Shown here: in pieces, positions 771 through 13,159 of the stretch
Layout: the number at the start of each line of letters is the position of its first letter
How positions within the stretch are numbered: position 1 is the first letter of the stretch
Notes under the pieces: model-generated
What the model was told of the DNA's origin: nothing
The model's input: only the letters and a program-made list of their open reading frames with translations
Database searches by the model: none
Translations under genes and position numbers: made by a program
DNA from: a virus
Taxonomy: Duplodnaviria; Caudoviricetes
Reading direction: 5' to 3' (one strand)
DNA length: 25,517 bases
IMG/VR virus record: IMGVR_UViG_3300014613_000098
Span: 1-25,517 of that record

Positions 771-810
771 GTTACAAAAAGTTACAAAAAGTTACAAAAA
801 GTTACAAAAA
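771..810. repeat. 10-bp tandem repeat (GTTACAAAAA) x4
   Basis: Four perfect copies; the rightmost contains the TAA stop of the MTase at 802-804. Confidence 0.97.
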
Positions 811-1896
811 CATACCAAGTTCTTTCTGGATTCGTTTTTCGGCGATTTTTATGTATTCAGGGCTTAGTTCGATTCCTATGTAGTTCCGGTTAAGTTTGCG
901 GGCCACGATAGCGGTAGTGCCTGATCCAAGAAATGGGTCAAGTACGGTGCCGCCCTCCGGGCAGCCGGCTTTGATGCATGGCGCGATTAAATCTTCAGGA
1001 AATGTGGCAAAGTGGGCTTCGGAAAATGGCTTGGTTGTGACTGTCCAGACAGAGCGTTTATTACGACTTTCATTAACCGTTACAAAACTTTCTTGCCCTG
1101 TTCCATTTTTACCATTTCGCTTACCTCCGTAACGTATATTACCCTTGTTTAATCTAATATCATCAATACAAACACTATCTTCCTTTATTGCCTCCGCATC
1201 GTAGTAATACCTTTGTGACTTACTCATCAGAAAAATATACTCATGGGATTTGGTGCATCTGTTGGTTACGGGTTCGGGCATTGGATTGGGTTTGTGCCAA
1301 ATTATATCCTGCCTGAGCCACCAGCCGGCGGTTCTGAGTGCGAATGCACACATCCATGGGATTCCGATGAGGTCTTTGGGTTTTAAATTTTTGACTCTTT
1401 CTGTTTTTCTTCTTTGGTGTGCATTACCTGGTTCGCCTTTATTGGGATAATATCCCCCAGAACCACCCGCATAACTATCTCCTAAATTCAACCAACAAGT
1501 TCCTTCCGGTTTCAGCACCCGCCTTACCTGTTCAAATACCTCAACCATTTTCTGGACGTAGGCTTCTGGCGTCGCCTCAAGGCCGATCTGGCTGTCAATG
1601 CGGATGGCCCCGCATTTTGGGCAATTATCTTTATATATCGCATCACCCACGCCACCATCAACATTATCACTTCCAGTCTCACCAAAGGCACTTCTCTTAC
1701 TGTCTCTCTTGTGGCTACATTCCGGATCACCCCCTTCCCATGTTGCGGTTCCGTAATCCCGGAGTCCATAGTAAGGAGGCGACGTAACAACACAATCAAC
1801 TGCGTTGTCAGGCAACTGCTTGAGTAAATCAAGACAATCACCATGGTGGATTTTGTTAATCCACCCCGCCAACTCCGTACTTTCTTTAGTATTCAT
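802..1896 (-). CDS. DNA amino-methyltransferase (N4-C/N6-A), beta class, with a Cys-rich insertion
   Basis: Catalytic VTSPPY near the N-terminus, SAM-binding VLDPFLGSGTT near the C-terminus, plus IIWHKPN and HFATFP; insertion with C-S-H and CPKC. Confidence 0.93.
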   Translation of the reverse strand: MNTKESTELAGWINKIHHGDCLDLLKQLPDNAVDCVVTSPPYYGLRDYGTATWEGGDPECSHKRDSKRSAFGETGSDNVDGGVGDAIYKDNCPKCGAIRIDSQIGLEATPEAYVQKMVEVFEQVRRVLKPEGTCWLNLGDSYAGGSGGYYPNKGEPGNAHQRRKTERVKNLKPKDLIGIPWMCAFALRTAGWWLRQDIIWHKPNPMPEPVTNRCTKSHEYIFLMSKSQRYYYDAEAIKEDSVCIDDIRLNKGNIRYGGKRNGKNGTGQESFVTVNESRNKRSVWTVTTKPFSEAHFATFPEDLIAPCIKAGCPEGGTVLDPFLGSGTTAIVARKLNRNYIGIELSPEYIKIAEKRIQKELGMFL

Positions 1897-2540: not shown

Positions 2541-3137
2541 TTAAAATTTGATTTTAAGTGGCATCCCGGATCCATTTCCTATATTATGCGTTATATCCAC
2601 AGGGGCTAATTCAATAAAATAACCCCTTCCAAATCCTTTTGATATACTAATGATGCTCGCATTTCCATCAAAAACTATATCAGATATTTTATTAGCCCCA
2701 TGAGATGTAAGCCAGAAATCTATTCTCTTTACTTTTTTTATGTGTTCCTCATCCAATATGCCATCATGGCAGGGGTCCCCCTCTTGCGTGGTTGCACCCG
2801 TAACTTTTCTTTCTTTATTCTCAATATATGCCCTTGCTATCGGGTGAAGTTCCCTGGGAATACTAAAACGCTCCACATGAATCTCTGCATTCTGAATCTT
2901 ATTTTTCTCAGAGGCGTAAAATGAATTCATACCATCGGTGTATATAGTTCCGATGTCCATGGAAATGTCTCTTATTGCGACAAAATCAATCGCAATCCTT
3001 GGGATTGGGTAATATTTTTCAACCACCTGGAGAGACCCACCTTCTTCGTGGTTTTCATCCTCTATCCATATTGTTTCCTGATATGTTCTTATAACACCAG
3101 TGATTTCTAGTTTTTCGACTGTCAGATTTACTTTCAT
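2541..3137 (-). CDS. hypothetical protein (198 aa)
   Basis: Long AT-rich ORF overlapping the upstream XRE gene stop by 4 nt. Confidence 0.75.
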   Translation of the reverse strand: MKVNLTVEKLEITGVIRTYQETIWIEDENHEEGGSLQVVEKYYPIPRIAIDFVAIRDISMDIGTIYTDGMNSFYASEKNKIQNAEIHVERFSIPRELHPIARAYIENKERKVTGATTQEGDPCHDGILDEEHIKKVKRIDFWLTSHGANKISDIVFDGNASIISISKGFGRGYFIELAPVDITHNIGNGSGMPLKIKF

Positions 3138-3325
3138 TTGTTTTTATATAATAAATTACACACATCCATATTCAGAACAGATGCTATTTTAAAAAGAGTT
3201 TCAATGCTTGGCTGCCTTCTGTTCTGAACATAAGAATTCACCATGTTATAACTTTTGCCAAGTCTTTCGGCCAACCAGGTTTGCTTAATTCCTTTTTCCT
3301 TCAGGACTTCTTTGATTCTGTTCAT
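3134..3325 (-). CDS. XRE/Cro-like helix-turn-helix regulator
   Basis: MNRIKEVLKEKGIKQTWLAERLGKSYNMVNSYVQNRRQPSIETL is a typical Bacteroidota HTH_3-type sequence. Confidence 0.9.
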   Translation of the reverse strand: MNRIKEVLKEKGIKQTWLAERLGKSYNMVNSYVQNRRQPSIETLFKIASVLNMDVCNLLYKNK

Positions 3326-4355
3326 CTATCGCTTTAAAAATTTCGTACACTACTTGCGGAACCACCGCATTTCCGAGTCCTTTCAGCCTATTCACCCGAT
3401 CTTTAATCCCGATTGCAACTCTTGGGATTCCTTCGGGTTCCCTGCTGAAATATCCGTCCATCCGGGTGGGTACATCATCAGCCACTCCACCCAGACAGGA
3501 TTCAGGCTGCCCGTTTGTTCCGTCGTTTTGTGAATTTCCCTGCCCAATAAACTGTTTGCTGGAACATTCTGGCAACTCTCTGCATTCCCGTCCTTGTGGT
3601 CTCTCGTTGTCGGTGTCGGAAACATCTTGGCATAGGTCTGTAAATCCATTCCCCCTTGGCCATGTATTGCCGGTTGATTGGCGTTTTGGGATTTCGGTGT
3701 TGGCAGCATCCCCTTTACCACATTGCTCAATCCCTGCTGCTTGCTCTTGACACTCCTTCGGCCTGAACAGTCCGGGGTCGGCAGCATCCTGACATCTTGA
3801 AATTGTGTTTTCCCGTTCTCGTCGCATCGTTTCAATCCCTGTGTCTGTGTGGTAGGCCACAATCCACACCCTGTCCCGTCTGTGCCACGCTCCGACACCG
3901 CAAGCTGGAATAACAAAAACCTCGACCTGATACCCTTCATCTTCCAGGTCAAGGAGTATCCGCTCAAGTGTTCTGCCATTTTCCATCGAGAGGAGGCCAG
4001 CAACATTTTCGCCAACGACATAGGCTGGTTTAATCTCTCGGATAACTCTAAGCATTTCAGGCCAGAGGTAACGGTTATCATTTTTTCCTTTTCTTTTCCC
4101 CGCTGCGGAAAACGGCTGACAAGGGAATCCCCCCACAATGATTGTTGGTTCGGATGGATTCCACTTTGTTCCTCCAAGTATTTTTTCATAGGTTAATTCT
4201 TTTATGTCATCAAAGACAGATACATCCGGCCAATGTTTTTTTATCACTTTCTGACACCATGGGTCAATCTCACAGAAACAGATGGGTCTCCATCCCAGCC
4301 AATTACCTGCAAGGCTAAAACCCCCTATACCAGAGAATGTGTCAATGATTTGCAT
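3285..4355 (-). CDS. dcm: DNA (cytosine-5) methyltransferase, large (alpha-like) chain
   Basis: Motif I FSGIGG, IV GFPCQPFS, VI ENVAG, VIII HRRDRVW and X LGNAVVPQV; no recognisable motif IX in this frame. Confidence 0.92.
   Translation of the reverse strand: MQIIDTFSGIGGFSLAGNWLGWRPICFCEIDPWCQKVIKKHWPDVSVFDDIKELTYEKILGGTKWNPSEPTIIVGGFPCQPFSAAGKRKGKNDNRYLWPEMLRVIREIKPAYVVGENVAGLLSMENGRTLERILLDLEDEGYQVEVFVIPACGVGAWHRRDRVWIVAYHTDTGIETMRRERENTISRCQDAADPGLFRPKECQEQAAGIEQCGKGDAANTEIPKRQSTGNTWPRGNGFTDLCQDVSDTDNERPQGRECRELPECSSKQFIGQGNSQNDGTNGQPESCLGGVADDVPTRMDGYFSREPEGIPRVAIGIKDRVNRLKGLGNAVVPQVVYEIFKAIDEQNQRSPEGKRN
3392..4189 (-). CDS. nested out-of-frame ORF, putative second (beta-like) subunit of the C5 MTase
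   Basis: 265 open codons in the +1 frame; LNPVWVEWLMMYPPGWT resembles motif IX; four (L/F/W)PT(P/T) repeats; leader AGAATTAACCT-ATG. Confidence 0.75.
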   Translation of the reverse strand: MKKYLEEQSGIHPNQQSLWGDSLVSRFPQRGKEKEKMITVTSGLKCLELSERLNQPMSLAKMLLASSRWKMAEHLSGYSLTWKMKGIRSRFLLFQLAVSERGTDGTGCGLWPTTQTQGLKRCDENGKTQFQDVRMLPTPDCSGRRSVKSKQQGLSNVVKGMLPTPKSQNANQPAIHGQGGMDLQTYAKMFPTPTTRDHKDGNAESCQNVPANSLLGREIHKTTEQTGSLNPVWVEWLMMYPPGWTDISAGNPKESQELQSGLKIG

Positions 4356-6236: not shown

Positions 6237-6599
6237 TTAATAAATCCATTGTCTTGCTATCTCGCAAAGTGCAACAAAAACTGCATCTTTATATCTTTTT
6301 AATTGTCCAAGTTGTGCATAAGAAACTAAATCCGGGTGAATGCGTTTTTCACGATCACATTCTTCTCCATATTTCCATCCCAGCGTAAGATATGCTTGCA
6401 CCCAACGTCCATGTAATTCTTCAGGAGAGCGTGAACGTTGTTCCCCACATTGACGTTCAATTACATTAAAAAATTGATCTTTGAAGTCCTGTTCTCGTTC
6501 ATTCCATAGTACAGGAATTATTGGGGCATTTGCTGCTTCTGCTGCAAGCCTCGCAGCATCATATACAAATCTTGCCCTACGTTCTATTAATGTTTTCAT
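6237..6599 (-). CDS. RyR-domain protein
   Basis: ELHGRW...GWKYG...KRIHPDLVSYAQL...KD matches the RyR repeat consensus HxxW...GWxYG...HPxLVPYxxL. Confidence 0.85.
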   Translation of the reverse strand: MKTLIERRARFVYDAARLAAEAANAPIIPVLWNEREQDFKDQFFNVIERQCGEQRSRSPEELHGRWVQAYLTLGWKYGEECDREKRIHPDLVSYAQLGQLKRYKDAVFVALCEIARQWIY

Positions 6600-12451: not shown

Positions 12452-13159
12452 CTATGTTGATTTTATATTTTTTTTTATTACAATGTTTCCTCGAAATAGC
12501 TTAGATAATTTATCAACTGGAAAATCCATAGGGATACTCACGGGAATATTAATAGGAATAGTATGTTTATTTTTTTTATTTTCAGATTGTAATAATTTTA
12601 TCAACTGGAAAATATCTACACCATCATCTGAATGTTCTATACTATGACATTGATCACATAATGTTATTAAATCATTAAGATTTTTATGTTCATTAAAGTG
12701 ATTTTTATATGTAAGATGATGGATATGTAAGTTATTATTGCGCCCACACATTTGACATTTATTTTTATCTCTTTTTAATACTATTTTCCGCACGAATCTC
12801 CAATAATCCGTTTTTAGAAAATCTTTATAATTTATATCTTTTAAAGCATTTTCGTTGTATTCTGTTCTTATTCCTTTCTTCTTTTTTTTATTCTTATTTT
12901 TGATTGCTCTAATATTTTTTTTTATATCATTCTTTGTAATTATACGATTTCTTTCAAGTTGGGCCAGTCTTTCGGTTTCTTCGTTCAGATAAACATTTTT
13001 TTTCCTCTTTGGATTGAATTTTCCATCAATTATTATTTTAGCCTCTTTGGATTGTTCTTTTTTTAAATTTTTAGCATATTCTCTTTTAGCTTTTATTTTA
13101 TTTGCTAATTCTGGATGGTTTCTAAGATATCTTAAATTACTTCTTTCCGCTCTATTCAT
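12452..13159 (-). CDS. HNH endonuclease with a basic N-terminal extension
   Basis: W...VLKRDKNKCQMCG...LHIHH...NLNDLITLCDQCHSIEH; very AT-rich relative to flanking genes. Confidence 0.9.
   Translation of the reverse strand: MNRAERSNLRYLRNHPELANKIKAKREYAKNLKKEQSKEAKIIIDGKFNPKRKKNVYLNEETERLAQLERNRIITKNDIKKNIRAIKNKNKKKKKGIRTEYNENALKDINYKDFLKTDYWRFVRKIVLKRDKNKCQMCGRNNNLHIHHLTYKNHFNEHKNLNDLITLCDQCHSIEHSDDGVDIFQLIKLLQSENKKNKHTIPINIPVSIPMDFPVDKLSKLFRGNIVIKKNIKST

Follow-up and report, generated by a model that had tools for sequence, protein, structure and literature searches.

What does an open reading frame nested wholly within a phage methyltransferase gene encode, and what might the spaced repeats in its product do? 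The question arises from a virus record of 25,517 bases, 34% complete, which we refer to as the window. The outer frame (3285..4355, minus strand) encodes a 356-residue protein, here called alpha, which consists of a catalytic part with motifs I-VIII, a low-complexity linker and motif X (PF00145, E 7.7e-47; phrog_363). The PF00145 match is confined to residues 1-177, and the N-terminal half of alpha aligns with M.HhaI through motif VIII. Taking the motif labels to be those generally used for C5-methyltransferases, we located motif I at 4337-4320, motif IV with its Pro-Cys at 4133-4107, motif VI (ENV) at 4010-4002, motif VIII at 3884-3864 and motif X (residues 327-333) at 3357..3377, all on the minus strand. 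These are the five motifs that an earlier sequence-only reading had listed for the main frame, and their order in alpha is that of a C5-methyltransferase. The linker (about residues 175-305; 3441..3833, minus strand) is polar, with few hydrophobic residues, weakly conserved and free of stops.

The nested frame (3392..4189) encodes a 265-residue protein, beta, in the +1 frame (phrog_1008, E 7.5e-26; 577 homologues among 964 candidates). It starts 166 nt after the alpha ATG, all of its 798 nt lie inside alpha, and motif X of alpha follows directly after its stop codon. Both open reading frames are therefore where the sequence-only reading had placed them; the strand, which it left unstated, is minus for both, and for all parts of beta described here. 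Met37 of beta and the conserved segment after it (4061..4081) are preceded by purine-rich sequence, and this methionine could be the main start or a second one. Residues 79-99 (3896..3955), dual-coded with alpha motifs VII-VIII, are predicted to form a beta-hairpin (local pLDDT about 82) with weak homology to the N-terminus of EcoHK31I-type beta chains. Four units with a Pro-Thr (PT) head come next, and they are followed by a near-invariant motif IX-like segment (residues 229-245; 3455..3505). An AlphaFold model of beta alone has low confidence (pLDDT 61, pTM 0.27) and shows the units as coil. Beta matched no family in Pfam, NCBIfam or PADLOC, a search of the ESM Atlas returned unnamed viral clusters only, and E. 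coli K-12 gave no match to the beta family, which is uninformative.

The assignment of motif IX to the nested frame is only partly borne out. The position of the segment fits, and it matches motif IX of the EcoHK31I-type beta weakly (E 2e-4 in a two-sequence search), but it has no library match. A canonical motif IX profile ranks the segment first within beta, although not above shuffled sequences (P 0.97), and scores the best window of alpha higher (P 0.066). Motif IX is not conserved in alpha, and cross-profiles of the motif are weak. In single-chain relatives the IX-like segment stands about 50 residues ahead of motif X.

Judging from matches to Pfam and PHROGs, the plus strand of the window carries genes for terminase, capsid-like and tail proteins, and the minus strand a run of small genes. 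The methylase gene lies within this run, between an unknown ORF and a gene for a Cro/C1-type helix-turn-helix protein (3134-3325, minus strand), which overlaps the last 41 bases of alpha and could regulate the methylase. In the same run, 1.4 kb downstream, is a second orphan methyltransferase of the N6/N4 type (805-1896, minus strand; PF01555), which fits an anti-restriction role. A 120-residue protein with a RyR domain match (6237-6599, minus strand; PF02026, E 1e-7; phrog_5154) is also encoded in the window. The low-GC stretch (about 29%) that follows the terminase gene contains, on the opposite strand, a gene for an HNH endonuclease (12452-13159, minus strand), probably a mobile insert. Apart from a distant HNH nuclease, none of the 31 window ORFs scanned matched a restriction-enzyme family in Pfam or PHROGs. 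The methylase is thus an orphan as far as its neighbors show, these being the helix-turn-helix protein and unknown ORFs in a phage, in a record that is 34% complete and that may hold a nuclease without a library match. Two four-base palindromes, CTAG (0.35 of expected) and GGCC (0.61), occur too seldom in the window as a whole; such counts do not identify a target. A promoter scan gave nothing above shuffles.

Groundwater metagenomes contain DNA nearly identical to the window, and no RNA dataset with such DNA was among the matches listed. Large parts of the stretch are matched by contigs from other groundwater runs (X3-X6), and no indels are listed for these matches. In one of the runs (X5) eight variant letters introduce no stop in either frame and change residues in both; these were left out because depth was below 5. 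Short groundwater contigs with a rearranged unit region, which probably come from related phages, were also left out of the analysis.

Selection on the two frames

In order to determine whether the overlap is maintained, we assembled a set of 248 related loci drawn from viral contigs and genomes, taking at most 80 from each of 582, 500 and 460 confirmed matches. Together with the window this gave 249 loci, 50 of which were left out because the motif IV, IX or X pattern was missing (truncated or divergent sequences). The sequence-only reading had proposed the openness of both frames in homologues as the test by which it could fail. It passed: 185 of the 199 classifiable loci are nested with both frames open. 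The others have a stop in alpha (5) or in beta (2), have both IX and X in the +1 frame, an AquI-like arrangement (4), or show other frame switches (3). The third frame is open in none of the 185 loci and has a mean of 13 stops.

The loci were retrieved with beta patterns, so that openness of beta is partly a matter of design and openness of alpha is the independent test. When the beta protein of the window was held fixed and its codons were resampled, 6.2 stops were expected in alpha, which stayed open in none of 300 trials; the converse resampling gave 3.4 expected beta stops and a probability of 0.023 that the frame is open. Resampling of beta codons in 138 representatives gave 6.9 expected alpha stops per gene and a mean chance of 0.4% that alpha is open.

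Substitution rates were obtained from 31 disjoint pairs, drawn from 155 candidate pairs among 167 genes, for alpha codon positions 1, 2 and 3, of which position 1 is the wobble position of beta. Before the overlap the rates are 0.069, 0.028 and 0.282. From motif IV to motif VIII they are 0.076, 0.025 and 0.106, and here both proteins are constrained. Between motifs VIII and IX the rates change to 0.247, 0.088 and 0.070, and in motif IX they are 0.118, 0.034 and 0.026; at motif X they are 0.053, 0.028 and 0.251. Amino-acid identity between VIII and IX is 88% for beta and 71% for alpha. The changes in this part fall on the wobble position of beta, and therefore beta is the selected protein there, with alpha a linker kept free of stops. 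All 28 net indels observed in the VIII-IX part are multiples of three and preserve both frames.

The start region of beta carries a further signal. An ATG at +49 or +52 from motif IV (Met37 in the window) was counted 167 times in the 185 loci. The alpha Asp codon that creates this ATG is GAT in 110 cases and GAC in 18, compared with an upstream background of 115 to 124. We regard dual coding as practically certain. The earlier estimate of about 800 dual-coding nucleotides stands in so far as 798 nt are open in both frames, but amino-acid selection in both frames extends over only about 290-340 nt, from the start of beta to motif VIII.

The PT units: turnover and likeness to recognition elements

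The nested frame had been described as carrying four spaced PTP repeats. Four units are present, but the first has PTT in place of PTP; it corresponds to the strand at the end of motif VIII, read in the +1 frame. Unit 1 (25 residues from beta residue 110; 3788..3862), the head of which coincides in part with the end of alpha motif VIII, is of a type that occurs in 72 of 254 stored proteins, among which many are closely related. The types of unit 2 (26 residues from residue 135; 3710..3787) and unit 3 (28 residues from residue 161; 3626..3709) occur in 11 and 9 of these proteins, respectively. Unit 4 runs for 40 residues from residue 189 up to motif IX (3506..3625), and its type is found in 7 of the 254 proteins, two of which are AquI-like split betas. 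Each of the four types recurs in other proteins beside other neighbors.

The number of units per gene varies widely among the 138 representatives: one unit in 30 genes, two in 43, three in 38, four in 18, five in 5, six in 2 and, as counted by a regular expression, none in 2. The 339 units belong to 142 types, 101 of which are singletons, and 136 genes show 121 arrangements of them; the median length of internal units is 34 residues. Unit number differs, often by one whole unit, in 99 of 297 pairs whose identity is 90% or more across 150 nt counted from motif IV (the pairs are not independent). Whole units are thus gained and lost, and with every net indel a multiple of three this agrees with the earlier suggestion that unit number would vary by in-frame indels.

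Are the units recognition elements? According to extracts of PMC2413257, a paper on BsaHI, the TL consensus of target-recognition domains reads aromatic-x-R/K-x5-P-x-P-T-I/L/V and lies 10-50 residues before motif IX; the last unit of the window begins about 40 residues before the IX-like segment. We compared a 12-position profile of the units with eight canonical enzymes from GenBank (SPbeta/phi3T, SPR, rho11s, H2, Dcm and three phage enzymes). When the whole head was masked, so that scoring covered just the 7 residues that follow T-x, all 15 T-[LIV] windows of the variable regions, which were chosen by our own pattern and several of which are related, fell in the top 5%, compared with 13 of 173 and 25 of 249 control windows (8-10%) under the same masked profile. 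The spacing of TL elements in the canonical enzymes (30-48 residues) brackets the median unit length of 34. The residue after PT is Pro in 288 of the 339 units and V, I or L in 40, so that the units depart from the full consensus as given in the extracts of PMC2413257, and its upstream part is absent from them.

Profile searches beyond this set gave little. A profile of the last unit together with motif IX found no solved methyltransferase, nor did the beta profile, and hhalign of the former against the SPbeta enzyme gave no match. The PADLOC orphan-methyltransferase model PDLC03718 matches 5 of 39 last-unit fragments. Among 127 proteins, considered as protein sequences only, 13 are single chains that carry motifs IV and VIII, two to eight units, and motifs IX and X in that order; 11 have units, IX and X, 66 have units and IX, and 37 were unclassified. 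Tandem elements of TL character thus lie between motifs VIII and IX, a statement that refers to profile likeness and not to structure. Turnover of whole units and likeness to TL elements both favor the earlier proposal that the PT units are a modular array, and we consider it likely, from their sequence, that they are recognition elements.

A proposed mechanism and its alternatives

The observation of the two frames is confirmed and the interpretation first given to it is supported. The best reading, to which we assign a probability of roughly two in three, is that the locus encodes an orphan two-chain anti-restriction methylase that is probably multispecific. Beta would be made by internal initiation at Met1 or Met37 and would dock on alpha to complete the small domain of an active enzyme, and it is very likely that the two act as separate chains. 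Each PT unit in turn may present a loop to DNA, like the tandem TL domains of Bacillus phage enzymes. The middle of alpha would be a passive linker, free of stops only for translation to reach motif X. Units may be added, dropped or swapped by recombination at their similar heads, and only changes in multiples of three would survive. The enzyme is likely to serve in protecting phage DNA from several host restriction enzymes; such shielding by multispecific methylases has been reviewed for Bacillus phages (extracts of PMC12707154 and PMC8936443).

True multispecificity seems probable to us. The reading that competes best with it, which we hold to be unlikely, is a two-chain enzyme with one specificity, in which a single unit is in use (for example the last, beside motif IX), the remaining ones being spare cassettes or structural repeats. 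Silent target-recognition domains do occur in Bacillus enzymes, 30 of the 138 genes have just one unit, and some types are tied to a position, type 1 being first in 29 of 30 occurrences and type 3 last in 18 of 18. Spare cassettes are hard to reconcile, however, with purifying selection on internal units in the beta frame, visible in the 88% identity and the wobble changes, and with the presence of the same types in first, middle and last positions.

We think it improbable that beta is real but its PT units are flexible spacers or partner-binding sites, with specificity low or coming from elsewhere. The Pro after PT, the lack of a library or structure match and the coil in the model would fit such units. 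Spacers would not be expected to resemble TL elements downstream of the masked head or to lie between VIII and IX in single-chain enzymes, and alpha offers no conserved candidate domain from which specificity could come.

It appears very improbable that frameshifting, ribosomal or transcriptional, leads from the alpha frame into that of beta after motif VIII and so yields the active enzyme as a single chain (which would then return to the alpha frame, or have X supplied by alpha). Single-chain relatives exist, and a few loci (L136, L218, L246) do switch frames. A fusion would have no need of the part of beta upstream of VIII, which is under selection (the alpha wobble rate drops from 0.28 to 0.11), nor of the favored ATG at +49/+52, and one chain would require two shifts; M.EcoHK31I, moreover, functions as separate chains according to extracts of PMC2836561. 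Finally, that the nested frame is a by-product of alpha codons or an assembly artefact, for which one could cite the first unit and part of the beta N-terminus as readings of conserved alpha motifs, is refuted by the substitution pattern across the frames; conservation across phyla and the matches in other groundwater runs, for which no indels are listed, also speak against it, and we give it almost no weight.

A broader proposal can be drawn from these sequences, and we put its chances at about even: the nested gene may be an exchangeable specificity subunit built of 25-40-residue modules (over 140 types), each programming a different target, shuffled by recombination under the constraint of two frames and moving between single-chain, split and nested forms. 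If this is true, nature has supplied in this family a library of minimal DNA-recognition units. Should each unit set one target, there would be many very small swappable modules with which to map a recognition code and to build multi-site methylases that ease DNA transfer into restrictive bacteria. The family is seen in hundreds of viral contigs and genomes. Annotation often records alpha alone, the middle of which is not the selected product, and predictions of specificity would therefore look at the wrong protein. The family is also a clean natural case of the upkeep of a long overlap, in which one frame is selected for its sequence and the other only for lacking stops.

Comparison with known methyltransferases

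The likeness to M.EcoHK31I that had been proposed for this locus holds for the nested two-chain layout. In extracts of PMC2836561 and PMC3404938 the beta chain of that enzyme is nested in alpha, holds only motif IX and is needed for activity, and the target-recognition domain is in alpha. Using a primer from the supplement of PMC2836561, we searched 5,426 complete E. coli genomes and found an EcoHK31I-type gene in 81, where it is chromosomal. The copy that we read (L262:2498-3427), which we take as M.EcoHK31I or a near allele, encodes a 309-residue alpha beside a NotI-family nuclease and a 176-residue beta in the +1 frame with Met17 and Met26, as in the extracts of PMC2836561. RefSeq lists only the alpha gene for this copy. 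Both systems have an alpha carrying motifs I-VIII as well as X, and a beta nested entirely in the +1 frame, from near motif IV to just before X, with motif IX (in the window, the motif IX-like segment) at its end. The homology is weak, both for motif IX and for the N-terminal hairpin of the M.EcoHK31I beta, which matches the family profile with E 7e-5.

The likeness does not extend to the recognition elements. M.EcoHK31I has one specificity (YGGCCR) and is part of a restriction-modification pair, whereas the window gene is a phage orphan. The two papers place the recognition domain of M.EcoHK31I in alpha, and in the alpha that we read a T-L motif is seen at residue 243, whereas in the window the middle of alpha is a near-neutral linker and TL-like units are arrayed in beta. 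The M.EcoHK31I beta lacks the PT array, scoring at best 0.6 bits against 16-29 in the window.

The C5-methyltransferases of Bacillus phages SPR, phi3T/SPbeta, rho11s and H2 are multispecific (extracts of PMC12707154, PMC8936443 and PMC2413257). Like the window gene they are phage orphans, with tandem elements of 30-48 residues between VIII and IX, and in both groups each element has a T-x-[TS] core. Each of the Bacillus enzymes, however, is a single chain read in one frame, and its elements have T-L/I/V and an upstream part that is conserved; the window family has T-P in a separate nested chain, mostly shorter units with a C-terminal helix, and members in many phyla; units 1-3 of the window (25-28 residues) are shorter than the Bacillus domains.

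M.AquI consists of two chains split after motif VIII, and its smaller chain has the distal variable region and motif IX, as in the window family (extracts of PMC3404938). By the same extracts its motif X is on the small chain and its genes are not nested, and the window gene, with X on alpha, differs from it in both respects. AquI-like members do occur in the family (L140, L183, L191 and L215 among the 199 loci; L251, which is mycobacteriophage Peaches gp77/gp76; and proteins P0129 and P0131), and in these alpha ends after motif VIII and beta continues through motif X. With single-chain members (P0134, P0136, P0153, P0214) the family shows three gene layouts: nested, AquI-like split and single-chain. 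In P0004, L136, L218 and L246 a frame switch inside the overlap yields hybrid products, which may be errors, pseudogenes or transitions between layouts. In P0196, P0207 and P0234 a motif X pattern comes right after VIII and PT units follow X; by these pattern matches alone, the motif order is possibly permuted.

The nested gene has already been marked in GenBank for Paenibacillus phage Diva (gp49/gp50, 'g49 internal gene') and E. coli phage K1ind2 (ORF29/ORF28), and the Paenibacillus phage genes are listed, in the extracts of PMC6070908 and PMC5056774, without comment. These phages share both families (PHROG 363 for alpha, 1008 for beta) and the nested layout with the window, and the records give labels only; the papers cited describe no function or unit array. 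Our literature search found no description of this phage family; the original EcoHK31I paper, Trautner et al. 1996 and REBASE lay outside its scope, so that absence from print is not established. In the parts of the literature that we cite, a single E. coli enzyme is the only one described with the nested two-chain layout, and tandem domains are described for a few Bacillus phages. Here a nested two-chain layout and tandem units, the putative recognition elements, are joined in one family, with the putative recognition part in the hidden frame.
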